Source: Candidatus Woesearchaeota archaeon
GTDB taxonomy: Archaea > Nanobdellota > Nanobdellia > Woesearchaeales > GW2011-AR4
Direction: 5' to 3'
Assembly: GCA_016185945.1 (NCBI GenBank)
Contig: JACPMR010000015.1
Span: 217,543 to 281,542, forward strand
DNA length: 64,000 bases
Numbering within the stretch: the first letter of the stretch is position 1; each line of letters starts with the position of its first letter. The translations under genes were made by a program, and so were the position numbers. A model generated the notes under the pieces. It ran no database searches. It was not told the origin of the DNA and saw nothing but the letters and a program-made list of their open reading frames with translations. Below, in pieces: positions 19,955 through 38,420 of the stretch.

Positions 19955-20773
19955 ATGATAGTTAAAGAAGAATTTTTGAGCAAACTGAGAAGGTTTTTCA
20001 GCCTCAATTTGTACGAGGTTAAAATATGGACGGCTCTGCTCAGCAGAGGGGTTTCCACAGCAGGAGAGCTTTCTGATATTGCAAATGTGCCGAGAAGCAG
20101 AAGCTACGATGTTCTCGAGTCATTGGAAAAGAAGGGCTTTGTCATAATGAAGCTTGGCAAGCCGATAAAGTACATTGCTGTTCCTCCAAAGGAGGTTGTT
20201 GAGAGAGTTAAAAAGAATGTTGAATCATATGCGAAAGAGGAAGTCAAAAAGCTTAGCGACTTGAAGAATACCGATGTTATCAATGAGCTGAGCGCATTGC
20301 ACACTCAGGGAGTTGAGCTTATCGAGCCAGCTGACTTGAGCGGTTCTTTGAGAGGAAGGCACAACTTATATAATCATCTTGAATTAACAATAAGAAATGC
20401 TGAGGAAAGCGTTACCTTGATGACAACAGCTCAGGGATTTATTAGAAAAATGGAGGGACTTAAGCCTACATTTGAAAAACTAAAGAAAAGGGGAGTGAAG
20501 ATAAGGGTTGCTGCCCCAATCACAAAAGAGGCATTGCCTGCTTTGAAAGAGATACAGGGGCTTGCAGAAATCAGGTATACTGACAATAAGGCAAGGTTCT
20601 GTGTTGTAGACAGCAAGGAGATAATCTTCATGATTCTGGACGACAATGAAGTTCATCCAACTTATGATGTTGGCATATGGGTTAACACGCCGTTCTTCGC
20701 AAATGCGCTGGAGAACTTATTTGACCTTGCGTGGAAGAACATGAAGCCGGCTGCAGAAGTTGTGAAGAGATAG
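19955..20773 (+). CDS. TrmB family transcriptional regulator (TrmBL2-like)
   Basis: LNLYEVKIW...TAGELSDIANVPRSRSYDVLESLEKKGFV winged HTH plus C-terminal PLD-like domain. Confidence 0.92.
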   Translation: MIVKEEFLSKLRRFFSLNLYEVKIWTALLSRGVSTAGELSDIANVPRSRSYDVLESLEKKGFVIMKLGKPIKYIAVPPKEVVERVKKNVESYAKEEVKKLSDLKNTDVINELSALHTQGVELIEPADLSGSLRGRHNLYNHLELTIRNAEESVTLMTTAQGFIRKMEGLKPTFEKLKKRGVKIRVAAPITKEALPALKEIQGLAEIRYTDNKARFCVVDSKEIIFMILDDNEVHPTYDVGIWVNTPFFANALENLFDLAWKNMKPAAEVVKR

Positions 20774-20844
20774 GATTTTTCTTTTTATTACTCCCTTCTT
20801 TATAATGCAAAAATATAAAAGAAGATATTGTTTCTAGTGATAGT

Positions 20845-21099
20845 ATGGATAAACTGAAACGTTACAGAAAGAGCATTGACTATACAGATAAAAAAATTGT
20901 TAAGTTGTTGCTATTAAGGTTTGATTTAGCTAAAAAGGTTTCGAAAGAAAAAAAATTGAATAGGGTAAAAATCATAGACAAAAAAAGGGAGTCTGAAATT
21001 ATGAAAAACATAAAAAAATATTCTAATAAAAAACATCAGCAATTTGTAAAAGATATTTTTAAAAATATTATAAATTATTCCAGAAAACTGCAAAGGTAA
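20845..21099 (+). CDS. aroQ: Chorismate mutase (AroQ type)
   Basis: LKRYRKSIDYTDKKIVKLLLLRF...K...IIDKKRE...Q pattern of AroQ. Confidence 0.85.
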   Translation: MDKLKRYRKSIDYTDKKIVKLLLLRFDLAKKVSKEKKLNRVKIIDKKRESEIMKNIKKYSNKKHQQFVKDIFKNIINYSRKLQR

Positions 21100-21945
21100 A
21101 TGGCAAAACAAAAATTGATTTTAAGCTTAAAGCAAAAAGCGAAAGAATTGCGCAAAGAAATTCTTGCAATAATTTACAATGCACAGTCCGGGCATCCTGG
21201 GGGCTCTTTAAGCGCAATAGATATGTTAGTTGGATTGTATTATTACAAGCTAAAAGTTGAGCCAAAAAATCCTATGTGGGAAGACAGAGATAGGTTTGTA
21301 TTGAGCAAAGGGCATTGCAGTCCTGCAATTTATGCTGTTTTGGCTGACAAGGGATATTTTCCAAAATCCGAGCTTGAAGGATACAGAAAAATCAACAGTA
21401 TGCTGCAGGGGCATCCAGAGCTAAGCATACCCGGAATAGATTTTGCAGGAGGCGCTCTTGGGCAGGGAATCTGCTTTGCGCTTGGAATTGCATTGGCGTG
21501 TAGGCTTGACAAAAGAAAATGCAATGTCTATGCAATGATTGGAGACGGAGAAGCGCAAGAAGGCGCTGTTTGGGAGGCCTCAATGGCTGCTGCCTTTTAC
21601 AAGATGGACAATTTGATTGCTGTTCTTGACAAAAACCAAGTGCAGCAAACAGGGAAAACAAAAGATATTATGGACATTGGCGATGCTGCTGCGAAATGGA
21701 AGGCATTTGGATGGAATGCTGTTGAGATCAACGGGCATGACATGGAGCAAATAGTCAAGGCATTAGATAGGGCATCTAAAATGAAAAACAAAAAGCCGAC
21801 AATGATAATTTCAAATACAATCAAAGGCAAAGGAGTTTCGTTCATGGAATTAAATCATAAGTTTCATGGAAAAGCCCCGAATGAGGAAGAATTCAAGAAG
21901 GCATTGATGGAAATAGACAAGATTAATGTTAAGACGTTTAAATAA
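21100..21945 (+). CDS. tktA: Transketolase, N-terminal (TPP-binding) subunit
   Basis: GHPGGSLS, DRFVLSKGH, LQGHP, GDGE...EG...N TPP motif. Confidence 0.95.
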   Translation: MAKQKLILSLKQKAKELRKEILAIIYNAQSGHPGGSLSAIDMLVGLYYYKLKVEPKNPMWEDRDRFVLSKGHCSPAIYAVLADKGYFPKSELEGYRKINSMLQGHPELSIPGIDFAGGALGQGICFALGIALACRLDKRKCNVYAMIGDGEAQEGAVWEASMAAAFYKMDNLIAVLDKNQVQQTGKTKDIMDIGDAAAKWKAFGWNAVEINGHDMEQIVKALDRASKMKNKKPTMIISNTIKGKGVSFMELNHKFHGKAPNEEEFKKALMEIDKINVKTFK

Positions 21946-22018
21946 AAATAATTAATTCAATAAATAAAAACCACATTAAGATAATAAAACATTAACAAAA
22001 AATAAATCAAACAAAAAC

Positions 22019-22263
22019 GAGAGCGACTTTTAGCTTCCATAGGCTAAGAAAGTAATCCGCTTTTGATTGAATTTGTGCATGCATAGGCGAGGCTTGAGCG
22101 ATTGGCAGAGAAGAGTGTGACATGCGAGTGAGCTCGACCTGCTTGCGTCCGACTTGTGAGCGAGTGATTCGCTCACTCGCATGTCACTGCTCGCAAGCTC
22201 GCATTCAACAGCGAACTCGCTCACAAGTCACCCGAGCTGTAAATATTGTTGCCGAAGGCAACA
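22019..22263. repeat. Composite structured insertion between the transketolase halves (copy B)
   Basis: 22019-22064 matches 29511-29556 at 36 of 46 nt. Perfect inverted repeats at 22117-33/22171-87 (17 bp) and 22151-65/22215-29 (15 bp); tgttgcc-gaa-ggcaaca hairpin at 22247-63. Confidence 0.75.
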
Positions 22264-22296
22264 GATTGAAGATAGAAATAATTAAATCAACTAAAA

Positions 22297-23232
22297 ATGG
22301 AAAAGATAGCCACTCGAGACGGTTATGGAAGGGCATTGGTTGAGTTAGGGAAGCAAAATCCGAATGTTGTTGCTTTAGATGCTGACCTGAGCGACAGCAC
22401 AAGGAGCGAGTATTTTGCAAAACAATTCCCCGAAAGATTTTTCTCAATGGGCATTGCAGAGCAGAACATGATAGGGGCTGCTGCCGGACTGGCTTTTTCA
22501 GGCAAGATTGTATATGCAAGCACTTTTGCAATTTTCAGCGAAAGGGCTTATGAGTTCGTGAGAAATGTTGTGTCAAGGAATAAACTGAATGTAAAGATTG
22601 CTGGAAGCCATGCAGGGATTTTTACAGGGGAAGATGGGAAGTCAGCACAGGCAATTGAGGACATTGCTGCTTATCGCGCATTGCCAAACATGATTGTGCT
22701 GCAGCCCTGCGATGCGGTTGAGACAGAGAAGATTGTTTTTGCGCTTGCTGGCTATAAAGGGCCTTCTTACATGAGAATGCACAGGAATCCTGTGCCTGTG
22801 ATTCACGATGCTAATTATAGATTTGAAATTGGAAAGGCAGAAGTTTTGAGGCAGGGCAAGGATGCTGTCATTTTTGCAACAGGCACTTTGGTTCATGAGG
22901 CGTTGAAAGCAGCTGAAATTTTAAAAAATGAGGGAATTGATGTTTTTGTTGTGAATATCCACACTATAAAGCCAATTGATGAGAAATTAATAATTGATTT
23001 GGCGAAGAAGACAAATTGCGTGATTACAGCAGAGGATCATAATGTGATTGGGGGCCTAGGAAGCGCTGTTGCAGAGGTTTTAGGTGAGAATTATCCTTGC
23101 ATTATGAAAAGGATTGGATTGAAGGATATGTATGCAGAGTCAGGCAAGCCGGATGAATTGTATAAGAAATATGGCTTGGATTCACAATCGATTGCTGAGG
23201 AAGTTATTAAGTTTGTAAGTAAGAAGAGATAA
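22297..23232 (+). CDS. tktB: Transketolase, C-terminal subunit
   Basis: ATRDGYG, GIAEQNM, GEDGKSAQAIED, TIKPID, EDHNVIGGLG. Confidence 0.95.
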   Translation: MEKIATRDGYGRALVELGKQNPNVVALDADLSDSTRSEYFAKQFPERFFSMGIAEQNMIGAAAGLAFSGKIVYASTFAIFSERAYEFVRNVVSRNKLNVKIAGSHAGIFTGEDGKSAQAIEDIAAYRALPNMIVLQPCDAVETEKIVFALAGYKGPSYMRMHRNPVPVIHDANYRFEIGKAEVLRQGKDAVIFATGTLVHEALKAAEILKNEGIDVFVVNIHTIKPIDEKLIIDLAKKTNCVITAEDHNVIGGLGSAVAEVLGENYPCIMKRIGLKDMYAESGKPDELYKKYGLDSQSIAEEVIKFVSKKR

Positions 23233-26936: not shown

Positions 26937-27020
26937 ATAGAGTGTTAAGATTTTGAAGAATAGATAAACATTTTACTTATTGTGCAAATATTTTTATATC
27001 GTCTATTTAATCTTTATCCT

Positions 27021-28157
27021 ATGGCACAGCAATACAGCGTGAAAGGGGCAAAGCACCATGAATCTTCGTATGAAAGGAAGGTAAAGGAGCTAGAGGAAGA
27101 GCTTTCAACCACGAAGTACAATAAAAAAACACAAGGACATATAGGGCTAGTCAAGGCAAAGCTTGCAAATATTAGGAAAGAATATCAAAGAAAGGCAGCA
27201 GCAAAAGGCAAGGGAGAAGGCTTCTCTGTCAAAAGAACAGGGGATGCAACTGCAATTCTTGTTGGGTTTCCTTCTGTCGGCAAGTCAACTTTGCTGAATG
27301 CAATAACAAATGCAAATTCTCCAGTAGGGGCTTATGCTTTCACGACATTAACCTGCATTCCCGGCTTGCTTGAGTACAATCATGCAAAAATACAAGTTTT
27401 AGACGTGCCTGGAGTTGTTGAAGGCGCTGCAACCGGCAGGGGAAGAGGAAGAGAAGTTCTTGCATGCGCGCAAAGCGCTGATTTTGTGATTATTCTGCTT
27501 GATGTGTTTCATCCAGAGCATTTGGAAGTTGTGAAAAAAGAAATCTATGAAACCGGGCTGAGGATAAATGAAAAGCCGCCATTGGTTAGGATAACAAAAA
27601 AGCCAAGAGGCGGCATAGATATTGGGTATACAGTAAGGTTGACGAAGCTGAATCAAGAAACAATCAAGGCAATATTAAAGGAATTCAGGCTGGAGAACAG
27701 CAGCATTGTAATAAGGGAAGACATTACAGACGATCAGCTGATAGATGCAATTGAAGGTAATAAAAAGTATGTGTCTGGAATAGTTGTTTTGAACAAAATA
27801 GACATGGTTGATGAAAAAGAATTGGAAAGAATAAAGAAGATTGTAAAGCCGGACATCTGCGTTTCTGCTGAGAGAAAAATAAACACAGTGGAATTGAAGG
27901 AATTGATTTTTAAGAGACTGGATTTCATAAGGGTTTACTGCAAGGAAGTTGGCAAAAAAGCAGACACGAATGTTCCTTTAATAATGAGAAAAGGAAACAC
28001 ATTAAGGGATGTTTGCCTGAAACTGCATAAAGATTTCATTTCGAAATTCAGGTTTGCAAGGATTTGGGGTAAGTCAGTAAAATTCGACGGCATGGTTTTA
28101 AGAAGATTGGAGCATATTGTTCAAGATAACGATATTGTGGAGATACATTTGAGTTGA
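27021..28157 (+). CDS. DRG/OBG-family GTPase with TGS domain
   Basis: GFPSVGKST, YAFTTL, DVPG, NKID, C-terminal TGS domain. Confidence 0.93.
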   Translation: MAQQYSVKGAKHHESSYERKVKELEEELSTTKYNKKTQGHIGLVKAKLANIRKEYQRKAAAKGKGEGFSVKRTGDATAILVGFPSVGKSTLLNAITNANSPVGAYAFTTLTCIPGLLEYNHAKIQVLDVPGVVEGAATGRGRGREVLACAQSADFVIILLDVFHPEHLEVVKKEIYETGLRINEKPPLVRITKKPRGGIDIGYTVRLTKLNQETIKAILKEFRLENSSIVIREDITDDQLIDAIEGNKKYVSGIVVLNKIDMVDEKELERIKKIVKPDICVSAERKINTVELKELIFKRLDFIRVYCKEVGKKADTNVPLIMRKGNTLRDVCLKLHKDFISKFRFARIWGKSVKFDGMVLRRLEHIVQDNDIVEIHLS

Positions 28158-28209
28158 AAAACCAGTAACCTTTAAATACTACTTATTCTTACTAAACCGC
28201 TTAAATCAA

Positions 28210-28305
28210 ATGAAAAAACTAGAAAACTTAATGGCAAACATTGGATTTGCTTTCTACAGGTTGTTTTCCGGCTTCAAGTATTTCTTTTTTTACTTTAAGT
28301 ACTGA
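28210..28305 (+). CDS. Putative Phe/Tyr-rich leader peptide MKKLENLMANIGFAFYRLFSGFKYFFFYFKY
   Basis: Hand-translated 31-aa ORF, below the ORF-track cutoff; 8 Phe and 4 Tyr in the last 19 codons. It lies downstream of TATA tttaaata (28171-78) and directly upstream of DAHP synthase. Confidence 0.75.
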   Translation: MKKLENLMANIGFAFYRLFSGFKYFFFYFKY

Positions 28306-28349
28306 TTAGCTTCTTTATATTTCTGAAGAAGAAAGCTAATCTCATTTTC
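28304..28349 (+). terminator. Hairpin after the leader peptide (attenuator-like)
   Basis: gattagctt (28304-12) pairs with aagctaatc (28333-41) and extends past a bulge; followed by tcattttct. Confidence 0.55.
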
Positions 28350-28400
28350 TAAACATTTTAAAACTCTAGAATGTTACAAACAATATCCAAAGGTGAGAAC

Positions 28401-29414
28401 ATGATTGTGGTGATGAAGAAGGGCGCAGGCGAAAAACAGCTTGCCAAGGTAATTGAAAAAATAAAGGAAAATGGGTTGAAGGCACATATCTCGAAAGGAG
28501 ATTTTGTGACAGTAATAGGGATTTTAGGAGATGAAAGCAAAGTTCCTGAAGCGCAGATAAGGGCATTGGAGGGAGTAGAAAAGCTGATGCCTGTTTTGTC
28601 TCCTTACAAGCTTGTAAGCAAGGATTTTCATCCTGAAAAGACTGTTGTGACTGTTGATGGTGTTAAAATAGGAGGCAATGAAGCTGTTGTGATGGCAGGG
28701 CCTTGCACTGTTGAAAGCAAAGAGCAGATACTTGAGACAGCAAGGGCTGTGAAGAAAGCAGGAGCAAGAATACTAAGAGGAGGCGCTTTCAAGCCAAGAA
28801 CATCTCCTTATTCTTTCCAAGGACTGGGGGAGGAAGGTTTAAAGCTGTTAAAACTTGCAAAAGAAGAAACCGGACTGCCAATCATAACAGAGGTTATGGA
28901 CACTAGAAATGTCCCATTAGTTTGCAAGTATGCTGATATTTTGCAGGTTGGAGCGAGAAACATGCAAAACTTTGATTTGCTGAAGGAAGTTGGCAAATGC
29001 AGTCATCCTGTTCTGCTGAAAAGAGGAATTTCAGCAACAATTACGGAATGGTTTATGAGCGCAGAATACATAATGGCAGAAGGCAATCATAACATCATCT
29101 TATGTGAAAGAGGGATAAGAACTTTTGAGACATACACAAGAAATACTCTTGACTTGAATGCTGTGCCTGCTGTCAAGGAATTGACACATCTACCGATTAT
29201 TGTAGATCCGAGTCATGGTACTGGGAGATACAGCTTAGTCAGCCCAATGAGCAAGGCGGCAATTGCAGCAGGCGCAGATGGATTATTAATTGAGGTTCAT
29301 CCAAGCCCTGAAAAATCAGTGAGCGACGCAGACCAGACAATAAGCACGAAAAGGTTTGAGAAATTGATGGAAGAATTAAAGTTAATAGCGCATGCAATAG
29401 GAAGGAAAATATAA
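28401..29414 (+). CDS. aroF: DAHP synthase type I-beta with N-terminal regulatory domain
   Basis: [51 protein letters not shown]; SD aggtga precedes ATG 28401. Confidence 0.95.
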
Positions 29415-29510
29415 GAAAATTGATTAGGTTGAAGACGATTAACAAATTCAATCAACAAACACGAGAGCTTCCTTTAAATAAAAGCAATATTGTAAAAATT
29501 AATCAATCCA

Positions 29511-29636
29511 GAGAGCGACTTTTGGAAGTCAAAGGAGAAGAAAGTGAACCGCTTTTACATAATGCACTTAAAGTCAAACAATATAGTGCAACAGCAATTG
29601 CGGGGCGCCCATTTTAACTAGCAGTGCTTGGGTCGC
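29511..29636 (+). repeat. Three-hairpin structured element (copy C) between aroF and aroB
   Basis: The 5' part matches 22019-22064 and the 3' part matches 6181-6257. Confidence 0.7.
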
Positions 29637-29671
29637 CTGATTGTTTTAAAAAATAGTATATTATATCAGAA

Positions 29672-30751
29672 ATGGAAACTATTAGAGTAAATTTGAAAGA
29701 AGAGATTGACAATTCTTATGTCATTTTAATAGATGAGGGGTTATTTGATAATCTGGCAAATGAGTTAAAACAAAAGCCGCTTGGAAATTATTATGCAATA
29801 ATAACTGACACTAATGTTGGGAAAGTTTACGGTAAAAAGTTGTTGGAAAATTTGCAAAGCAAAAATATCAATGCACATTTGATAACATCCCAAGCAGGAG
29901 AAAAAGGCAAAACAAGAAAGACAAAGGAAAAAATCGAGGATGAGATGCTTGAGCTCGGCTTGGGCAGAGACTCCTGCATCATTGCTCTTGGCGGCGGTGT
30001 TGTTGGCGACTTGGCGGGGTTTGTTGCTGCAACATACATGAGGGGAATTCCATACATTCAAGTTCCCACAAGCTTGCTTGCAATGGGTGACAGTTCAATA
30101 GGTGGCAAAGTTGCAGTAGATACACTGCATGCAAAGAATGTGATTGGCGCTTTCTACCAGCCGAAAAAAGTGATTATTGACTTGAATTTTCTGAGAACAT
30201 TACCAAAAAGCGAATTGGCGAATGGAATGGCTGAAGTAATCAAGCACGCTCTAATTAAAGACAAGGATTTCTTCCATTTTCTAGAAAAAAACATTGACAA
30301 GATTATGGATTTGGAGATATTAAAAAAAACAATTAAAAGGAGCTGCGAGATTAAGGCGGATATTATAATGCAAGATGAAAAGGAAAAAGGGCTTAGGAGA
30401 ATTCTCAATTATGGGCATACAATCGGGCATGCAATCGAAGCAGCATTGAGCTACAAAATAAGCCATGGAAATGCAATTGCGATTGGCATGAGCTATGCTG
30501 CAAAATTATCCGCAAAGAAGGGCTTTCTGCATGAAGGTTCTGTTATAAGGCAGAATAATCTGATGGAGTATATTGGCTTGCCGCACAGATTAAGCCATCA
30601 TAAATTGAAACCAAGAAAAATTCTGGGAAATATACAATATGACAAGAAAATCGTGGATGGAAAGATAAATTTTGTATTGTTGAATTCAATTGGAGATGCC
30701 TTTGTTTCTGATGAAATAACTTTGGACGATATTAAGCAAATATTGGAATAA
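29672..30751 (+). CDS. aroB: 3-dehydroquinate synthase
   Basis: ALGGGVVGDLAGF, RGIPYIQVPTSL, DSSIGGK, EVIKH, LNYGHTIGHAIE. Confidence 0.96.
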   Translation: METIRVNLKEEIDNSYVILIDEGLFDNLANELKQKPLGNYYAIITDTNVGKVYGKKLLENLQSKNINAHLITSQAGEKGKTRKTKEKIEDEMLELGLGRDSCIIALGGGVVGDLAGFVAATYMRGIPYIQVPTSLLAMGDSSIGGKVAVDTLHAKNVIGAFYQPKKVIIDLNFLRTLPKSELANGMAEVIKHALIKDKDFFHFLEKNIDKIMDLEILKKTIKRSCEIKADIIMQDEKEKGLRRILNYGHTIGHAIEAALSYKISHGNAIAIGMSYAAKLSAKKGFLHEGSVIRQNNLMEYIGLPHRLSHHKLKPRKILGNIQYDKKIVDGKINFVLLNSIGDAFVSDEITLDDIKQILE

Positions 30752-30758
30752 AAATAAA

Positions 30759-32234
30759 ATGATTGCTGCTGTTATAACTGAAAGAGATGAAAAAGACGCA
30801 CTTAATGCTATTAAGAAAATCAAAGACGCTGATTTGATTGAATTAAGACTGGATTATATCAAAAATTTAGATGATAAAAAATTAAAAAATCTAATCAAAA
30901 ATTGCAGAAAACCGGTTATTGCAACCTGCAGAAAGAAAAGCGAAGGTGGATTTTTTAGTGGAAGTGAAAATGAAAGAATTAATATATTAAAAAATGCTGT
31001 AAAATTAGGAGCGGATTATGTTGACATTGAATATTCTTCTGATAAAAATGTAATAAAAGATATTATAAAAAATAAAACTAAAGCAATTGTTTCCTGCCAT
31101 GATTTCAAACAAACTCCAAGCAATCTAGGAGATATTTACAATAACATAAAAAAATTAAATCCGGATTTAATCAAAATAGTCACGTATGCCAATTCTGTAA
31201 CAGATAACTTCAAGATTTTTGATTTGATAAAAACCGCAAACGAAGAAAACAAAAAAATAATTGCATTCTGCATGGGCTCTTATGGGCAGTTCAGCAGGAT
31301 TTTAAGCGCGATTCTTGGTTCACAAATAACATATAGCTCGATAGAAGAAGGTAAGGAATCAGCAGATTGTCAATTAACGATGAATGAAATGGTAAATTAT
31401 TACAGAATTAAAAAATTAAACAAAAATACAAAAGTTGTTGGATTGATTGGAAATCCAGTAGAGCATTCTTGGTCACATATAATACATAATTCTGCATTTG
31501 ACAAATTAAACATTAATGCTGTTTATTTAAAGTTTCAAGTGGATAAATTGAAAAAATTTATTGAGTATATGAAACCCCTGAATCTTATTGGATTTAGCGT
31601 CACAATCCCGCACAAAGTCGAGATTATGATGTATATTGATGGATTAGATAAGCAGGCAAAGGGGATTGGTGCTGTAAATACTCTTGTTGTTAAAAATGGT
31701 AAATTAATCGGATATAATACAGATTGCCCAGGAGCTATAAGAGCATTGAAGCAAAAAACAGAATTAAAAAACAAGAATGCTGTTGTTTTAGGAGCAGGCG
31801 GGGCAGCAAGGGCAATGGTTTATGGCTTAATAGAGAATAAATCAAATGTTACAATATTGAACAGGACTGTTGAAAAGGCAAAACTGCTTGCTGATTATTT
31901 TAAATGTGATTATGGCTCTTTGGATGATTTAAAAGATATTGATTATGATATTCTAATCAACACAACATCTGTTGGGATGTATCCAAAAGCTAATGAATTA
32001 CCTATTGGCAAAAATTCAATAAAAAATAACAAAATTGTTTTTGATATGGTTTTCAATCCCTTCAAGACAAAACTTCTTGTTGAGGCTGAAAAAAGAAACT
32101 GCACAATAATTAATGGTTTTGAGATGCTGATTTATGGAGCTTTGCTGCAGTTTAAATTATGGACTGGAAAAGATGCTCCGGAACAACTAATGAGGCAAAA
32201 AGTTATGGAATTTTTGAAAAATGCTAGCCATTAA
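30759..32234 (+). CDS. aroDE: Fused type I 3-dehydroquinase and shikimate dehydrogenase
   Basis: IELRLD, IVSCHDF and IKIV (AroD), then GNPVEHSWS, SVTIPHK, GAVNT, NTD and GAGGAA (AroE). Confidence 0.92.
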   Translation: MIAAVITERDEKDALNAIKKIKDADLIELRLDYIKNLDDKKLKNLIKNCRKPVIATCRKKSEGGFFSGSENERINILKNAVKLGADYVDIEYSSDKNVIKDIIKNKTKAIVSCHDFKQTPSNLGDIYNNIKKLNPDLIKIVTYANSVTDNFKIFDLIKTANEENKKIIAFCMGSYGQFSRILSAILGSQITYSSIEEGKESADCQLTMNEMVNYYRIKKLNKNTKVVGLIGNPVEHSWSHIIHNSAFDKLNINAVYLKFQVDKLKKFIEYMKPLNLIGFSVTIPHKVEIMMYIDGLDKQAKGIGAVNTLVVKNGKLIGYNTDCPGAIRALKQKTELKNKNAVVLGAGGAARAMVYGLIENKSNVTILNRTVEKAKLLADYFKCDYGSLDDLKDIDYDILINTTSVGMYPKANELPIGKNSIKNNKIVFDMVFNPFKTKLLVEAEKRNCTIINGFEMLIYGALLQFKLWTGKDAPEQLMRQKVMEFLKNASH

Positions 32235-33477
32235 AACAAAAAAATACATTAATGCAGTAATTGAAGCTCCGCCATCAAAAAGCTATACACAAAGGGCTTT
32301 GATAGTTGCAGCTTTGGCTAATGGAAAGTCAATAATAAAAAATCCTTTATTTAGTGATGACACTAATTACATGGTTTCTGCGCTGAAGCAATTCGGAGTT
32401 GAAATCAAGAAAAAAGGGAAAAATCTTGTTGTTTATGGAATAAATGGAAGGTTAAAAACCCCTGATAAGAATGTCTTTGTAGGAAATGCAGGCACTGCGA
32501 TGAGGTTTCTTGCTACATTTGCATCGCTTGCTGATGGTGATACTATAATAACAGGAGACAAGCGAATGCAGCAAAGACCCATACAGGACTTGCTTTATGC
32601 ACTGCAGCAGATTGGGGTGAACAGCAAAAGCAGTGATGGGTTTCCTCCTGTGAAGATTTTTGGCGGCTCTTTTAACGGAGGCAATATAAGGTTAAAGGGA
32701 GATTTAAGCAGCCAGTACTTGACATCAATTTTATTATGCGCTCCTTATGCAAAAAATAGTATTACAATGAACATAACGGAAAATCTAACTTCAAAGCCAT
32801 ATGTCGATATCACGCTTGATGTGATGAAAAAATTTGGAGTTGATGTCAAAAATATCAACTACAAAAAATTCATGATAAAAAATAATCAGAAATACAAGGC
32901 AAGAAACTATGCAATTGAAGGGGATGCTTCCAGCGCAAGCTATTTCTTTGCAGCAGCTGCAATTGCAAAGGGAAAGGTAATGGTAAAGAATATAAATCCA
33001 GCCTCAAAACAAGGTGATATTAAGTTTGTTGATATATTGAAGAAGATGGGGTGTGGCGTGAAGAAAGGCAAGAACTACATACAAATAGAAGGATATAGCT
33101 TGAAAAGCGTTGATGTTGACATGAATGAAATGCCCGATGTCGTACCTACGCTTGCTGTCACAAGCGTTTTTGCTGAAGGTACTACAACTATAAGAGATGT
33201 TCCTAATTTAAGATTAAAGGAGACTGATAGATTAAAGGCATTGGCCTTTGAATTAAGAAAGATTGGCGCTAATGTAGAAGAAATGCAGGACGGCTTGAAA
33301 ATAAAAAGAAGGAGGGTGCAGAAAGCGATAATTGAAACTTACAATGATCATAGAATGTCTATGAGCTTTGCAGTTGCTGGATTGGGAATAAATGGTATAA
33401 GGATAAAAAATCCTGCTTGTGTTAAAAAGTCATTTCCTGATTTTTGGGAAAAATTCAATGAGCTGTATAAAAAATGA
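32221..33477 (+). CDS. aroA: EPSP synthase
   Basis: PPSKSYTQR, GNAGTAMR, SSQY, EGDASSA, KETDR, DHRMSM. Confidence 0.96.
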   Translation: MLAIKTKKYINAVIEAPPSKSYTQRALIVAALANGKSIIKNPLFSDDTNYMVSALKQFGVEIKKKGKNLVVYGINGRLKTPDKNVFVGNAGTAMRFLATFASLADGDTIITGDKRMQQRPIQDLLYALQQIGVNSKSSDGFPPVKIFGGSFNGGNIRLKGDLSSQYLTSILLCAPYAKNSITMNITENLTSKPYVDITLDVMKKFGVDVKNINYKKFMIKNNQKYKARNYAIEGDASSASYFFAAAAIAKGKVMVKNINPASKQGDIKFVDILKKMGCGVKKGKNYIQIEGYSLKSVDVDMNEMPDVVPTLAVTSVFAEGTTTIRDVPNLRLKETDRLKALAFELRKIGANVEEMQDGLKIKRRRVQKAIIETYNDHRMSMSFAVAGLGINGIRIKNPACVKKSFPDFWEKFNELYKK

Positions 33478-33989
33478 ATATTGCTCTTATCGGCTTTAGG
33501 GGGGCTGGAAAGACAACTATTGCAAAATTGCTTTCAAGAAAATTGGGCAAAAAATTGATTTCAACAGATGGGGAAATTGAAAAAAGGACGAGAATGAGCA
33601 TTGCGAAGTTTGTTAAAAAATACGGCTGGGACAAATTCAGGGAAGTTGAATCAGATGTGATAGAATATATAAGTGATTTTGATGATTGCGTTTTTGACAC
33701 TGGCGGCGGCATAGTTATGAGAAATGAAAATGTAATTAATTTAAAGAAAAATGGGTTGGTGGTCCTGCTGACAGCAGATATAAAGACAACCACAAACAGG
33801 CTGAAGGCAGGCAAAGGCAGGCCTGCATTGACAAAAAAAGGAAATTTTCTTGAGGAAATAAAGGATGTTCTGAAAGAAAGAGAGGAAAGATACAAGAGGG
33901 CTGCTGATTACACAATCGATACTTCGAGATTAAAGCCAGAAGAGGCATGCGACTTGATAATGCATTATGTTCAGATGGAGATGCAGTAA
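33474..33989 (+). CDS. aroK: Shikimate kinase (bacterial AroK type)
   Basis: GFRGAGKTT, STD, FREVE, TGGGIV, RP...R; not the archaeal GHMP-type enzyme. Confidence 0.93.
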   Translation: MNIALIGFRGAGKTTIAKLLSRKLGKKLISTDGEIEKRTRMSIAKFVKKYGWDKFREVESDVIEYISDFDDCVFDTGGGIVMRNENVINLKKNGLVVLLTADIKTTTNRLKAGKGRPALTKKGNFLEEIKDVLKEREERYKRAADYTIDTSRLKPEEACDLIMHYVQMEMQ

Positions 33990-33990
33990 A

Positions 33991-35070
33991 ATGAATTCAT
34001 TCGGAACCTTGCTCAGGATAACAACATGGGGGGAAAGCCATGGCAAGGCAATTGGAGTTGTTGTAGATGGATGTCCTGCAGGGCTTGAGCTTAATGAAGA
34101 AGATGTGCAACAAGAGCTTGACAAAAGAGCGCCTGGGCAGAGCGAAGTAATGAGTCCAAGAAAAGAAGCTGACAAGGTAGAGATTCTTTCAGGAGTTTTT
34201 GAAGGCAAGACGACCGGAATGCCAATCTCAATGACTATCTACAACAAGGATGCTGATTCCTCAAAATATGAGAAAATAAAGCACTTGCTAAGGCCAGGGC
34301 ATGCTGATTTTACTTACCAGATTAAATACAAGCATCGAGATTACAGAGGCGGTGGCAGAAGCTCTGCTAGGGAAACAGCTGCAAGGGTTGCAGCAGGAGC
34401 AATTGCAAAGAAATTATTGGCAAAATATGAAATTAAAATAATCGCTTATGTAAAAGAAATTGCTGGAATAAAGGCTAATAAGATTAATTACAATGAAATT
34501 TACAAAAATAATGTAAGATGTCCTGACAAGACTGCTGCAAAGAAAATGGAAAAGGTAATTTTGAAAGCAAAAAATGAAGGTGATTCTGTAGGGGGCATAT
34601 GCGAGATTGTTGCATTGAACGTGCCTGCTGGACTTGGCAAGCCAATCTACAACAAGCTGGAATCGGATTTGGGCTCTGCAATTCTTGGCATTAATGCTGT
34701 AAAGGGGGTTGAATTTGGAGCTGGCTTTGGATTAGCTAATATGAAGGGCAGCCAATCAAATGATGAGTTTATATTAAAAAACAATAAAATTGTTACAAAA
34801 ACAAACAATCATGGAGGAATTTTGGGAGGAATATCAACAGGAATGCCTATTGTAATGCGGGCAGTTGTGAAGCCGGCATCCAGCATCTTAAAGAAACAAA
34901 AAACGATAAACTACAAGACAATGAAGCAGGAAACAATATCTGTTGAAGGAAGGCATGATCCTGCAACTATAGTGAGATTCCCGCCAATTGCAGAGGCAAT
35001 GACAGCTATTGTGCTTGCAGACCACATGCTTATGGCTGGCAAAATAAATCCTGATACATTATTGAAGTGA
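33991..35070 (+). CDS. aroC: Chorismate synthase
   Basis: GESHG, RPGHAD, GGGRSSARET, NNHGGILGGISTG, GRHDP. Confidence 0.96.
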   Translation: MNSFGTLLRITTWGESHGKAIGVVVDGCPAGLELNEEDVQQELDKRAPGQSEVMSPRKEADKVEILSGVFEGKTTGMPISMTIYNKDADSSKYEKIKHLLRPGHADFTYQIKYKHRDYRGGGRSSARETAARVAAGAIAKKLLAKYEIKIIAYVKEIAGIKANKINYNEIYKNNVRCPDKTAAKKMEKVILKAKNEGDSVGGICEIVALNVPAGLGKPIYNKLESDLGSAILGINAVKGVEFGAGFGLANMKGSQSNDEFILKNNKIVTKTNNHGGILGGISTGMPIVMRAVVKPASSILKKQKTINYKTMKQETISVEGRHDPATIVRFPPIAEAMTAIVLADHMLMAGKINPDTLLK

Positions 35071-35906
35071 GTTCTATGGTGAAAGTCGGCATTATTGGAG
35101 GAACAGGGCAAATTGGACAGTTTTTCAGGAAAATTTTTGAAAAAAATAATTGTGAAGTTTTGGTTTCATCAAGGACAACAAAATTAAAGCCAGAAGATTG
35201 CGCAAGGCAAAGCGACATAGTATTGGTTTCAGTGCCGATTGAGGTTACTGTTGATGTAATCAAAAGACTCTCTCCTTATATCAACAAAAATTCTTTGCTG
35301 ATGGACACAACATCAATAAAAAAAGAGCCAGTTGATGCTATGCTTCGCTATTCAAAATGTGAAGTAATTGGCATGCATCCGGTTTTCGGGCCTGGGGTTG
35401 AGTCATTAAAGAATCAAACAATTGTTTTGTGCCCAGCAAGAACAAAAAAATGGCTTAAATGGATTGTTGATATTTTTGAGAAAGATGGTGCAAAAATCAA
35501 GATAACAACTCCGGAAAAGCATGATGAGATGATGTCTGTAATACAAGGGTTAAACCATTTCAGCACTTTAAGCGTGGCGCATGCAATGAAAAATTTAGGA
35601 GTAAGCTTGAAAGAAAGCTTGGAATACACTAGCCCTATTTACAAGTTGAGGATGATTATGGTCGGAAGAATTTTGAATCAGGATGCAAACTTGTATGCAA
35701 GCATTGAGATAAAAAATTCTGAAAATAAAAAAATTTTGAAGATTTATGAAAAATCATCAAAAAAACTGCAAAGAATTATCGAGACAAAAAACACAAAAGA
35801 GTTTGTAAAATACTTCAATGAATGTGCTGAGTTTTTTGGCGGCTTCAAGAAAGAGGCTGAGGAGGTAAGCAATTATCTTATTAAGCAAATGGTTGATATG
35901 AAATGA
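35067..35906 (+). CDS. tyrA: Prephenate dehydrogenase
   Basis: GGTGQIG, DTTSIK, GMHPVFGP, HDEMMSVIQGLNH. Confidence 0.93.
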   Translation: MSSMVKVGIIGGTGQIGQFFRKIFEKNNCEVLVSSRTTKLKPEDCARQSDIVLVSVPIEVTVDVIKRLSPYINKNSLLMDTTSIKKEPVDAMLRYSKCEVIGMHPVFGPGVESLKNQTIVLCPARTKKWLKWIVDIFEKDGAKIKITTPEKHDEMMSVIQGLNHFSTLSVAHAMKNLGVSLKESLEYTSPIYKLRMIMVGRILNQDANLYASIEIKNSENKKILKIYEKSSKKLQRIIETKNTKEFVKYFNECAEFFGGFKKEAEEVSNYLIKQMVDMK

Positions 35907-36712
35907 AAATAGCGACTTTAGGCCCGGAAGGAACTTTCAGCCATGAAGCTGTGCTCAGATACAACAGCAAAGCAGGCATTTTGTTTACAGAGACTGTGAT
36001 GGATGCTTTTGAGGAAGTTGCTGACGGCAAGGCAGATTTTGGGATTGTGCCGATTGAGAATTCAATTGCAGGCACTGTTGGGCAGACTCTTGACTATTTG
36101 ATGAAGTTTGAGCTGAAAATTAAAGCTGAAGAGTTGGTTCCGATAAGCCATAATCTTTCTGGGTTTGGGAAGATAAGTGACATTAAAGTGCTGTATCTGC
36201 ATCCGCAAACCTATGAGCAATGCGAGTTATTTATTAAAGAAAATCTTCCAAAAGCTGAGATAATACAGACATCAAGCAACGGCAAGTCAGCAGAGATAAT
36301 TGCAAAATCAAAAGACAAGGCAAAGGCATCAATTATTCCGAAAATTGCAGCTGATATTTACAAGTTGAAGATACTTAAAAAAGATGTGCAGGACAACAGA
36401 TTCAATATAACAAGGTTTTTTGTAATAGGGCATGAAGACAGCAAGAAAACCGGGTATGACAGGACAAGCATTGCTGTATATCCGCAAGTTGACAGGCCTG
36501 GATTATTGCATGAAATGCTTGGCGAGTTTGCAAATAGAAAGATAAATTTGACCAAAATTGAGTCAAGGCCTTCAAAAGGAAAGCTTGGCGATTATATTTT
36601 TTACATTGATTTTCAGGGCCATAAATCAGAGAAGCATGTTGCAGAAGCATTAAAGAAATTAGAAGAGACTGCTTTTGTGACAGTGCTTGGGAGTTATCCG
36701 AGGAAATACTAA
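35903..36712 (+). CDS. pheA: Prephenate dehydratase with ACT domain
   Basis: LGPEGTFS, PIENS, NITRF, LTKIESRP. Confidence 0.94.
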   Translation: MKIATLGPEGTFSHEAVLRYNSKAGILFTETVMDAFEEVADGKADFGIVPIENSIAGTVGQTLDYLMKFELKIKAEELVPISHNLSGFGKISDIKVLYLHPQTYEQCELFIKENLPKAEIIQTSSNGKSAEIIAKSKDKAKASIIPKIAADIYKLKILKKDVQDNRFNITRFFVIGHEDSKKTGYDRTSIAVYPQVDRPGLLHEMLGEFANRKINLTKIESRPSKGKLGDYIFYIDFQGHKSEKHVAEALKKLEETAFVTVLGSYPRKY

Positions 36713-36713
36713 C

Positions 36714-38234
36714 ATGGATATCAAAAAATTAGCAGAAAGCCTTAATCCATTTGAAAGAAAGGTATTGAAAGTTTTGGATAATTTCAGCTCTTTTAATGAC
36801 ATTATGAAAGTAACTGGATTGAAGGATGTTGAAGTCATGCGGGCATTGCAATGGCTGCAGAATAAGAATGTTGTAAAGCTGAAAGAAGAACAGAAAGAGC
36901 TTGTTTATCTTGATGAAAATGGGCAGAAGTATTTGAAGTATGGCTTGCCTGAAAGAAGGTTTTTAGAAGTGATTGAAAAGCCTGCAAGAATAAGCGATGT
37001 TGCCAAAAAGACAGGGTTAAGCAATGATGAGATAACAATATCGCTTGGCGCTTTAAAATCAAAAGCAGCCATTGACATAACAAAAGAAAAGGAATTAATT
37101 ATTTCAATAACAGAGCAGGGAAAAAATATTCTAAAGCGGGGATTGCTTGAAGAGCAGTTCCTAAAAGAGCATTTTCCAAAAGAGGCTGCAAGCTTAAATG
37201 AAGAGGAAAAGTTTGTTTTTGAAAGCTTAAGAAAAAGAAAGAAAATAATCAAAGTTGAAAGAGCAAAGGTTATCAGCGCAGAGATTACAGAAATTGGAAA
37301 AAAATTATTTAAGGAAAAGATTGAAGAGGATTTGATAGAAAGGGTGACTCCTAGTTTAATCAAGACTGGCTCTTGGAAAGGAAAAAAATTCAGAAGATTT
37401 GATGTAAAGATCAATGTCCCTCCCATATTTGCAGGAAGAAAACAGCATTACAGAAAATTTCTTGAAGAAGTGAGGCAGAAATTTGTTGCTCTTGGCTTTA
37501 AGGAGATGGACGGCCCAATAATTGAGAGCGATTTCTGGGATATGGATGCTTTGTTCATGCCCCAGTTTCATTCTGCAAGGGACATACACCAAGGTTATTA
37601 CATAAAAGAGCCGAAGTATTCCAAAGATATCCCTGAAAATGTCTTGAAAAATGTAAAGGCAGCGCATGAAAATGGTTTTGATACAGGCTCGAAGGGCTGG
37701 AGATATGATTTTGACGTCAAAAGGACTCAAAGGCATATTTTAAGGACACATGACACTTCAATTTCAGCAAGGACACTTGCTTCCAAGGAATTGAAAATTC
37801 CAGGCAAGTATTTCCAGATTTCAAGATGCTTCAGGTATGATGTGGTTGATGCAACACATTTGCCTGACTTCAACCAAGTTGGAGGGTTTGTCATTGAAGA
37901 AGGCATTCATTTCGGGCATTTGAAAGCGCTACTAAGAATGTTTGCAGAGGAGTTTGCGGATGCCGAAGAAGTGAGGATAAAGCCGAGCTATTTTCCATTC
38001 ACAGAGCCAAGCGCTGAGCTGCAGGCAAAGCACCCGGAGTTTGGATGGATTGAGTTGGCGGGCTCTGGAATTTTCAGGCCTGAATTGGTTAAGCCCCTTG
38101 TTGGAAGAGAAGTGCCTGTTATTGCATGGGGTGTTGGCTTGGACAGACTGGCAATGTTCAAGCTTGGCATTAAGGATATAAGGCAATTGTTCAGCCATGA
38201 CTTGAAAGTGTTGAGGAATGCAAGGGCAATATGA
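36714..38234 (+). CDS. pheS: Phenylalanine-tRNA ligase alpha subunit
   Basis: FWDMDALF..QFHSARD, LRTH, FRYD...H..F.Q, FPFTEPS, G.GIFRPE, GLDRLAM. Confidence 0.96.
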   Translation: MDIKKLAESLNPFERKVLKVLDNFSSFNDIMKVTGLKDVEVMRALQWLQNKNVVKLKEEQKELVYLDENGQKYLKYGLPERRFLEVIEKPARISDVAKKTGLSNDEITISLGALKSKAAIDITKEKELIISITEQGKNILKRGLLEEQFLKEHFPKEAASLNEEEKFVFESLRKRKKIIKVERAKVISAEITEIGKKLFKEKIEEDLIERVTPSLIKTGSWKGKKFRRFDVKINVPPIFAGRKQHYRKFLEEVRQKFVALGFKEMDGPIIESDFWDMDALFMPQFHSARDIHQGYYIKEPKYSKDIPENVLKNVKAAHENGFDTGSKGWRYDFDVKRTQRHILRTHDTSISARTLASKELKIPGKYFQISRCFRYDVVDATHLPDFNQVGGFVIEEGIHFGHLKALLRMFAEEFADAEEVRIKPSYFPFTEPSAELQAKHPEFGWIELAGSGIFRPELVKPLVGREVPVIAWGVGLDRLAMFKLGIKDIRQLFSHDLKVLRNARAI

Positions 38235-38419
38235 AAGGGAAAAAACAATTCATAAAGATATGCCCGAAATGTGGGAATATAGACATTCCAGTAAAGACTG
38301 GATTTATCGAAATGCTTGCCCCAGTGCCGGAAAAATGCAGGAAATGCAGCTACACTGGGTTGTTTCCTGAGATAGATATAAGCGAGGTTGAAGAATTTAG
38401 GAGAGATTTGAAAAGATAA
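38231..38419 (+). CDS. Small zinc-ribbon protein
   Basis: CPKC and CRKC pairs; tightly packed between pheS and pheT. Confidence 0.65.
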   Translation: MKGKKQFIKICPKCGNIDIPVKTGFIEMLAPVPEKCRKCSYTGLFPEIDISEVEEFRRDLKR

Positions 38420-38420
38420 A

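Follow-up and report, generated by a model that had tools for sequence, protein, structure and literature searches.

We analysed a 64,000-nt stretch of contig JACPMR010000015.1 from a Candidatus Woesearchaeota archaeon (hereafter the window; coordinates are window positions unless given with the locus label of a relative). The region upstream of aroF, the first structural gene of an aromatic amino acid operon, encodes a short open reading frame (ORF) of 31 codons that is probably a cis-regulatory leader peptide sensing phenylalanine and tyrosine. Eight Phe and four Tyr codons occupy twelve of its last 19 positions (F13, F15, Y16, F19, F22, Y24, F25, F26, F27, Y28, F29 and Y31), and the element looks like the first leader-peptide, that is ribosome-stalling, amino acid sensor in Archaea. 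An original prediction, made from the letters of the window, had read this region as an attenuator; our translation agrees with the ORF and with the count of aromatic codons it had given. The idea of a translated Phe/Tyr-rich leader at the 5′ end of the operon is upheld by its conservation, its pattern of substitutions, the constraint on its Phe and Tyr codons and the variety of first genes that follow it, whereas the mechanism proposed along with it found no support in the form given.

A Phe/Tyr-rich leader ORF upstream of aromatic operons

The leader lies in a gap of 243 nt (28158–28400) between a DRG-type GTPase gene and aroF, which has a G+C content of 28% in an AT-rich genome of 38% GC. 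Among the 394 short ATG-initiated ORFs of the window it has the highest score for Phe plus Tyr in the tail (12), and the runner-up, which scores 10, lies in an antisense frame. Such a rank within the window is suggestive only, and it is the comparative data that are decisive. Rfam and tRNA scans of the window returned no match. No leaders for other amino acids were found in the window, which holds no other biosynthetic operon. A frameshift signal composed of a slippery run and the hairpin described below was ruled out, as the heptamer does not stand in register and the spacer measures 12 nt.

Relatives were collected by scanning a genome collection and metagenomes with AroF, which yielded 160 loci (labels L001–L173 denote the fetched relatives). 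Since a protein search with a 50-aa extended peptide matched only itself, the leader family was built from DNA loci; only one of the leader ORFs is present in a database of 5.8 billion proteins. Altogether the family comprises 28 distinct leader loci, namely 19 sequences that we term type 1 and nine divergent lineages. The closest AroF relatives come from metagenome-assembled genomes (MAGs) titled Woesearchaeota or Nanoarchaeota. Upstream of aroF, the 31-codon ORF was found in 19 distinct sequences from these groups, whose AroF is 73–85% identical to that of the window, and every close archaeal relative with enough upstream sequence carries it. The enrichment of Phe and Tyr in short ORFs ahead of aroF in relatives, which the original prediction had proposed to look for, is thus conserved. 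Counted from its conserved core the type-1 ORF always has 31 codons (32–34 with alternative upstream starts), while the flanking non-coding DNA is rich in indels. The type-1 consensus reads [MV][RK]K[IL]ENLMAQIGFAFYRLFS[SG]F[KR]YFFFYFK[YFH], followed by the stop codon.

To describe the selection on this ORF we used Nei-Gojobori proportions from a codon alignment. The type-1 leader has a pS of 0.625 and a pN of 0.137, with synonymous sites near saturation, and aroF of the same genomes has a pS of 0.70 and a pN of 0.11 (pN/pS 0.16). Within the leader, pN/pS is 0.047 for the twelve aromatic codons versus 0.33 for the other codons. The free change at third positions, together with this pattern of pN/pS, indicates that the ORF is translated and that its aromatic codons are the most protected. 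A functionless ORF, arising by chance from T-rich DNA between genes or in terminators, can be regarded as effectively refuted. The genome is indeed AT-rich, and T-rich terminators after a TrmB-family gene in L164–L168 do read as Phe-rich frames, though without start codons; yet frame, length and aromatic codons of the leader are conserved while synonymous sites approach saturation, and the ORF has a TATA box of its own and recurs in nine divergent lineages.

At the nucleotide level the codons TTC TTT TTT TAY TTT, which contain a run of seven T (T7), are invariant in 18 type-1 sequences, while the other Phe codons vary between TTT and TTC. L011 is the only type-1 leader that breaks T7 (TTC TTT TAT TTC TTT, encoding part of YFFYFF), and it retains its Phe/Tyr content. 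T7 could be a pause or termination signal for RNA polymerase or a U-tract recognized by FttA/aCPSF1. Runs of at least seven T are rare in sense coding sequence (5 in 56 kb). We rejected the avoidance of T runs on the coding strand as evidence for oligo-T termination, because base composition alone accounts for the depletion. An apparently degenerate leader, MKNIVSILDFISFGFIYFWQ up to its stop codon, was seen in L009 (2834–2897) behind a TTTAAAAA box. It retains the CATGATAAAAAACTAA motif, has a 5-bp hairpin with the stop codon in the loop, and may be a decaying or re-tuned copy.

The nine more divergent lineages carry different short ORFs that end in FFYFYF or FFFYF, each placed before the first gene of an aro operon (Table 1). 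The most telling case is L169, where the genes behind the leader encode the archaeal shikimate entry enzymes, which are unrelated to DAHP synthase and aroB. The leader tracks the pathway, not a single gene. As a further observation on these loci (L169–L171, 2166–3404), Woesearchaeota have bacterial-type or archaeal-type entry enzymes behind one kind of leader. For the leaders that we term type 2, pN/pS is 0.145 at aromatic codons and 0.65 at the rest; practically nothing but the Phe, Tyr and Trp codons persists, as is classically seen in leader peptides and not in functional proteins.

How specific the association is can be judged from a six-frame scan of 846 kb of fetched loci, where 30 of the 41 ORFs with at least six Phe/Tyr among their last nine codons are leader ORFs. 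At loci where the TrmB-family gene is followed by tkt alone, by pheS, or by a DUF134 or LTD gene, we found a T-rich terminator and no ATG-initiated Phe/Tyr ORF. That the leader came from bacteria together with aroF was considered and rejected: about 60 bacterial aroF loci have no Phe/Tyr leader within 500 nt, two weak AT-rich chance matches being the sole exceptions. Beyond Woesearchaeota the nearest AroF proteins are bacterial (Chloroflexota, Omnitrophota, Armatimonadota and Verrucomicrobiota, at 55–63% identity), which suggests that the DAHP-synthase-type pathway was acquired from bacteria.

Putative promoter, stop-codon hairpin and post-hairpin motif

The TATA box that had been predicted at 28171–28178 is present there as TTTAAATA, and together with a BRE-like stretch it forms the putative promoter P1 (Table 1). 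The block CGCAAC[AC]TTTAAATA is nearly invariant in an alignment of 10 relatives. Its TATA box begins 39 nt before the leader ATG, which predicts a transcript start about 5–10 nt before the ORF. Across the family, a canonical TATA box (TTTAAATA, TTTATAAA or TTTATATA) has its 5′ edge 28–44 nt before the leader start in 25 of the 28 loci; at the three exceptions (L014, L016 and L018) the ORF starts 5–22 nt after the stop of a TrmB-family gene. From this spacing, a leaderless or very-short-leader mRNA with the leader ORF as its first cistron is predicted. For aroF itself there is a conserved Shine-Dalgarno (SD) sequence, whereas a separate promoter that is both conserved and well placed was not found.

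At its 3′ end the ORF runs into a hairpin, in which pairing begins at the second base (G) of the TGA stop. The original prediction had described this hairpin as having at least 9 bp and overlapping the stop, and it is indeed present, with −12.5 kcal/mol and z = −3.2 (one of 200 shuffles folds as well). In 25 of the 28 leaders a hairpin of 9–16 bp (median −9 kcal/mol) has its start 1–8 nt from the first stop-codon base (median offset 1), while a hairpin at the same position occurs at only one of 29 ordinary gene stops of the window taken as controls. RNAalifold on type 1 returned the stop hairpin as the only consensus helix, with 91% of the cells of the alignment paired. As to the covariation on which the original prediction had wanted a check, several wobble changes are seen, and the closing G-C pair turns into A-U exactly where TGA turns into TAA (L012, L091). 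Stems of unrelated sequence stand in the same place in L010, L082, L087, L091 and all type-2 loci.

According to the original prediction, the Phe-codon tract (28281–28290) can pair with the 3′ arm of the hairpin (28325–28334), giving two mutually exclusive structures. Read in this way, the element would be a four-segment attenuator of the bacterial kind, with a stalled ribosome selecting an antiterminator that overlaps the intrinsic terminator, be this the hairpin or a helix further on. The pairing does exist in the window (−7.5 kcal/mol, z = −1.8), but it is weaker than the hairpin and is not conserved, being weak or absent in relatives, where its median in type 1 is about −3.4 kcal/mol versus −9 kcal/mol for the hairpin. 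No conserved second helix that competes with the hairpin was found in this lineage either, type 1 has no 3:4 partner by RNAduplex, and mutually exclusive structures are not supported as the specific mechanism. Other loci come closer to the bacterial design. T5–T8 after the hairpin are found in L010, L082, L087 and L091, and only there, and clear 2:3/3:4 alternatives are seen in L010, L016 and L018, where the 3′ arm of the hairpin can instead form a 10–14-bp 3:4 helix with a downstream segment; L016 and L018 retain this alternative with different sequences. Still, most type-1 sequences have no U-tract after the hairpin, and a terminator scan of 28158–28400 found no intrinsic terminator. Were the hairpin the terminator, stalling at the upstream Phe/Tyr codons would raise termination on starvation; moreover, archaeal polymerases terminate at oligo-T and are not known to need hairpins for this. 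We regard a four-segment attenuator as very unlikely.

Behind the hairpin lies a further motif, whose consensus is seen in L001–L088 and whose window copy is degenerate (Table 1). Both types have [CT]CATTGT behind the hairpin, and in type 1 this part is followed by ACATGATAAAA[CT]TATAA. The motif can be read as a small second hairpin of 6 bp, as a TATA-like box or as a 4-codon mini-ORF. Its helix TCATTGT/ACATGA is 90% paired with only wobble changes, and the mini-ORF ATG ATA AAA CTA TAA (M-I-K/N/R-L/N-stop) is present in 13 of 15 sequences, the window copy having no ATG. The internal ttttaaaa at 28356–28363, at which a start of aroF transcripts would have spoken against the original prediction, lies in this motif, which resembles a local TATA box, and may mark a second promoter. 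For six relatives (L004, L005, L012, L028, L084 and L086) we rejected the motif as a promoter of aroF: at 19–25 nt from the ATG it is too close, and its transcript would lack both the conserved SD and the start codon. In L007 and L011, where a gene is inserted before aroF, leader, hairpin and CATTGT motif stay with the promoter and not with aroF.

These features could also be taken to mean that P1, ORF and hairpin form an independent small gene, encoding a micropeptide or a trans-acting small RNA, and that aroF has its promoter in the TATA-like motif. The ORF does have its own TATA box and terminal hairpin, its distance from aroF ranges from 70 to 521 nt, ACATGATAAAACTATAA resembles the promoter AAAACTATAAAAAAGG of a leaderless gene in L165 (30 nt before the tkt ATG), and the non-aromatic residues of type 1 are partly constrained. 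In type 2, however, aromatic codons persist and the other residues change almost without restraint, as befits regulatory codons and not a folded peptide. The leader ORF was never found away from an aro operon, either in the 846-kb six-frame scan or at the TrmB-neighbour controls, and it tracks the first gene of the operon, whichever that is. With the short distance between the TATA-like motif and aroF in the six relatives added to this, an independent gene seems rather unlikely.

Possible mode of action and comparison with known systems

Leader-peptide attenuation is a textbook bacterial mechanism, which requires that translation be coupled to transcription and that intrinsic terminators act through hairpins. 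Archaea also couple transcription and translation, and their Pol II-like polymerase terminates at oligo-T and via the CPSF73 homologue FttA. The original prediction knew of no archaeal amino acid leader-peptide attenuator, and our search of a literature of 8 million papers found none described; Blombach et al. (2021; PMC8448881) state that no attenuation or antitermination is known in archaea.

For the way in which the leader might act, we tentatively suggest a scheme in which the hairpin is the ON state and termination depends on a factor. Transcription would start at the conserved TATA promoter, a few bases ahead of the leader ORF, and the first ribosome would translate the leader while RNA polymerase is still close by, with the twelve Phe/Tyr codons across the last 19 codons serving as a delay line. 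When charged tRNA-Phe and tRNA-Tyr are plentiful, the ribosome would arrive at the stop codon and cover the 5′ arm of the hairpin; when Phe or Tyr is scarce, it would lag or stall upstream, and the hairpin would form once made. The hairpin would represent the starvation, read-through state, equivalent to the bacterial 2:3 antiterminator. With the ribosome at the stop, the transcript would be lost before aroF, most likely by termination of the U-tract/FttA(aCPSF1) type and not by a bacterial hairpin-plus-U. T7 within the Phe codons would be a candidate for a pause that synchronises ribosome and polymerase, or for the termination signal that executes the decision; alternatively, as the original prediction had suggested, it may be a U-rich factor-entry site hidden by the stalled ribosome. 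We infer here that leader and aroF are transcribed together and that the ribosome stalls, and likewise which way the switch works and what terminates transcription.

Several features led us to this scheme. The hairpin is more likely the read-through state than a terminator, because a ribosome stalled upstream (codons 13–27) would free its 5′ arm, which a ribosome at the stop would cover. Conservation extends to every one of the twelve aromatic codons, even those lying well ahead of the hairpin, and is most simply explained if a delay at any point allows the hairpin to form. The competing helices of L010, L016 and L018 fit the hairpin as the ON state, and the location of the sole conserved U-tract inside the Phe/Tyr run, with the region after it structured or A-rich, is circumstantial evidence for a factor-dependent switch. 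Taken further, the element would be the first archaeal transcription attenuator, in which the poly-U is at once the Phe-codon sensor and the pause or termination (FttA/aCPSF1) signal, and ribosome position and stop-locked hairpin decide polymerase release; it would be widespread in Woesearchaeota and re-used before bacterial-type and archaeal-type shikimate entry enzymes. This joint proposal is possible, and we put it forward with considerable doubt.

A number of points weigh against the reading as a Phe/Tyr-sensing leader that acts on transcription. The moderate constraint on the non-aromatic residues of type 1 hints that the peptide itself may matter. The hairpin of the window is AU-rich and is followed by CTCATTTTC (CTCATTGTC in relatives), with no conserved T-run after it, and neither RNAalifold nor RNAduplex against shuffles (z ~0) gave a conserved helix that competes with it in the lineage of the window. 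T7, being inside the ORF, might end transcription whether or not the leader is translated, and the post-hairpin motif resembles genuine local TATA boxes (compare L165), so that aroF might have its own promoter in some lineages. No RNA run holding the window or a relative was found, and four groundwater metatranscriptome runs gave zero coverage on L005. Finally, by a simple logic of uncoupling and polarity, starvation should bring more termination and less read-through, an effect of the wrong sign, so that the hairpin-ON scheme has to assume that the hairpin or the stalled ribosome is protective.

The problem of sign would be solved by an arrest peptide of the TnaC/SpeFL type. In that case the nascent chain and free Phe/Tyr in the exit tunnel would stall the ribosome, high amino acid would be sensed, and stalling at high Phe/Tyr would uncouple the polymerase and lead to termination. 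In its favour, the whole type-1 peptide is conserved, including the N-terminal ENLMAQIG and the exact length. The type-2, L014 and L032 leaders, though, share with type 1 only the aromatic codons and their position, and a run of 12 cognate codons is a hallmark of sensors of tRNA charging, not of known arrest peptides. We therefore hold an arrest peptide to be highly improbable.

It is also conceivable that the sensor is the same and its output differs, stalling controlling the translation of aroF or the stability of the mRNA as in the models of erm/cat, of mycobacterial poly-Cys ORFs or of protection from a 5′-to-3′ exonuclease. Mycobacterial Cys short ORFs (sORFs) work in this manner (bioRxiv 10.1101/834739). 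In the minimum free energy fold of the window UUUUUACUUU of the Phe/Tyr run pairs with AAGGUGAGAA, the SD of aroF, and aroF keeps this strong conserved SD; in addition, a ribosome stalled on the leader, at the very beginning of the mRNA, could protect the message. When ribosome-footprint constraints were imposed on 17 loci, however, the mean unpaired probability of the SD/AUG was 0.43 for free RNA, 0.46 when a stalled ribosome was imposed and 0.47 when the ribosome was placed on the stop codon, and sequestration of the aroF SD was discarded since its accessibility is unchanged. Specific long-range pairing is hard to square with a spacer that reaches 521 nt and, in L007 and L011, takes in an entire gene; besides, L016 and L018 lack an SD ahead of their first gene. 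Such an output is unlikely.

Among known systems the closest in appearance is pheM of E. coli, the leader of the pheST-ihfA operon, which senses charged tRNA-Phe by ribosome stalling. In the K-12 record it is a short ORF heading an operon with pheS and pheT, its peptide ends in FFFYF plus two residues and then the stop, and it has the identical 16 nt TTC TTT TTT TAC TTT A with the same arrangement of two codons and TGA (28282–28305 of the window). The two differ in that pheM has 14 codons with 5 Phe, whereas the archaeal ORF has 31 codons with 8 Phe and 4 Tyr, and in that pheM is followed by a GC-rich terminator hairpin and T7, whereas in the window the stop is met by one AU-rich hairpin that no U-tract follows. 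Here, too, the promoter is of the archaeal TATA/BRE type, and the operon also holds the whole shikimate, Tyr and Phe pathway. The resemblance may most simply be taken as convergence.

With pheL-pheA, trpL and hisL the element shares a leader ORF rich in cognate codons before a biosynthetic operon, a stop placed so that the terminating ribosome occludes the next helix (the logic of region 2) and, in type 2, strong conservation of the regulatory codons only. The terminator/antiterminator pair and the hairpin-plus-U intrinsic terminator of these classical attenuators were not found in the lineage of the window, and the host is an archaeon, whose polymerase terminates at oligo-T and via FttA. The element resembles an attenuator sensor in its working and is not a member of the bacterial structural class.

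The mycobacterial poly-Cys sORF Ms5788A (bioRxiv 10.1101/834739) is likewise a leaderless or near-leaderless sensory first cistron with cognate codons clustered at its 3′ end and no canonical terminator. In that system translation is what is controlled, by way of a pairing between the Cys tract and the SD of the following gene, whereas here the accessibility of the SD is unaffected and the spacer is very variable. A further parallel would be tnaC, speFL and mgtL with Rho, in which the ribosome parked at the leader end hides or exposes an entry site for a termination factor; by analogy, FttA would replace Rho. Those leaders are bacterial and Rho-dependent, and tnaC and speFL sense a free metabolite via an arrest peptide. 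A paper on the structure of FttA proposes that FttA/aCPSF1 monitors transcription-translation coupling like Rho (PMC11616081), and the U-rich Phe/Tyr run would on this analogy be a natural FttA site.

Lying before the aro operons of many uncultured DPANN archaea, the leader would offer a natural test case for whether, and how, the position of a ribosome bears on archaeal transcription and on the fate of the mRNA. It would be evidence that amino acid sensing by codon runs evolved outside Bacteria, with a solution (FFFYF) near-identical to that of E. coli pheM. The cassette is compact, about 200 nt, and, once transferred to Thermococcus, Methanococcus or Haloferax, could serve as a probe of FttA-dependent quality control of coupling. 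More generally, it suggests that small unannotated ORFs in MAGs hold regulatory information that gene callers miss.

The aromatic operon and neighbouring genes

Table 1. Features of the leader region and the aromatic operon in the window, and leaders before other first genes in relatives.
Feature	Position	Strand	Description
DRG-type GTPase gene	26982–28157		Left neighbour of the leader region
Putative promoter P1	28163–28178 (TATA 28171–28178)	+	BRE-like purine/C-rich stretch and TATA TTTAAATA
Leader ORF	28210–28305	+	31 codons plus TGA (28303–28305); encodes MKKLENLMANIGFAFYRLFSGFKYFFFYFKY
C-terminal aromatic run	28279–28296	+	YFFFYF; includes T7 at 28285–28291
Stop-abutting hairpin with inner extension	28304–28341	+	Arms GATTAGCTT (28304–28312) and AAGCTAATC (28333–28341); inside the stretch that a ribosome sitting on the stop would cover
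Post-hairpin motif	28341–28369	+	Window copy CTCATTTTCTAAACATTTTAAAACTCTAG (degenerate); family consensus C[TC]CATTGT-N4-ACATGATAAAA[CT]TATAA
SD and aroF start	SD 28392–28397, ATG 28401–28403	+	GGTGAG; AAAGGTGAGAAAATGATTGT conserved in the alignment of relatives
aroF	28401–29414	+	DAHP synthase with N-terminal ferredoxin-like regulatory domain (Pfam PF00793, PF18152); first structural gene
aroB, aroD-aroE fusion, aroA, aroK, aroC, tyrA, pheA (PDT+ACT), pheS, 62-aa zinc-ribbon ORF, pheT	29672–40079	+	By Pfam; zinc-ribbon ORF by translation
Leader of L013			MNILEGINVVLNEFFLDRQFFYFYFW; before tktN-tktC-aroF
Leader of L016			MNLEKAPGKANEFFLDKSFFYFYFR; before tktN-tktC-aroF
Leader of L018			MSLGKNSGKQKEFLLGSTFFYYYFM; before tktN-tktC-aroF
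Leader of L014			MPKHQSWFVFKEFFMFLFFYFIY; before tktN-tktC-aroF
Leaders of L172 and L173			Type 2; before tktN
Leader of L032			MVMNTAKNTGSWDFFSYSFFFYF; before chorismate mutase-aroF
Leader loci with inserted gene, L007 and L011	L007 1622–2239, L011 730–1336		Type-1 peptide; GNAT acetyltransferase gene inserted between leader module and aroF
Leader of L161			MSNLERSNTKLNKFSLDENTFYFYFW; before aroF
Leader of L169			MAMAGKINSILNEFFLGQNFFYFYFW; before DeoC-family ADH synthase and type-II dehydroquinate synthase (DHQS-II)

The start of aroF was set at ATG 28401 by the alignment of relatives, and the start at 28371 given in the list of ORFs is wrong; in the longer ORF that begins there, the FXD domain starts at residue 11 according to Pfam. 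The gene content given by Pfam agrees with the description of aroF as heading a Phe/Tyr biosynthesis and pheST operon in the original prediction, which has to be corrected in that aroF and aroB are separated here by a gap of 257 nt. This spacer (29415–29671) is lineage-specific: in relatives, aroB or a histidine-phosphatase-like gene abuts or overlaps aroF. It contains a P1-like TTTAAATA at 29473–29480 and a TATA-like stretch just before aroB, and given these promoter-like boxes the leader may control only aroF in this genome. Further down the operon, the gap between pheS and pheT is filled by an unannotated 62-aa ORF (38231–38419, + strand), which overlaps the pheS stop by 4 nt and has two CxxC pairs (CPKC...CRKC) like those of a zinc ribbon.

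Elsewhere the window carries an archaeal ribosomal-protein/SecY cluster and, at 20774–23232 (+ strand), a second aromatic unit that has no leader and consists of chorismate mutase (20845–21099), tktN and tktC. A terminator-like T5CT5 run follows a TrmB-family gene there, and a AAAAATATAAAAG box 32 nt before the chorismate mutase ATG suggests a leaderless mRNA. As L013–L018 have tkt and aroF as a single operon behind the leader, the lineage of the window appears to have split the tkt-aroF operon. The GC-rich spacer of 351 nt between tktN and tktC has two perfect interleaved inverted repeats, of 17 nt (22117–22133/22171–22187) and 15 nt (22151–22165/22215–22229). These repeats (22117–22229) gave no Rfam match and could be a structured RNA, a mobile-element remnant or alternative helices.

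The TrmB-family regulator itself (19955–20773, + strand) is conserved to an unusual degree, with more than 120 database clusters at 74–93% identity among Woese-, Pace- and Nanoarchaeia. In many genomes its gene lies directly upstream of the Phe/Tyr leader and aro/tkt genes, and elsewhere before pheS, DUF134 or LTD genes; the protein may be a protein-level regulator of the aromatic pathway.

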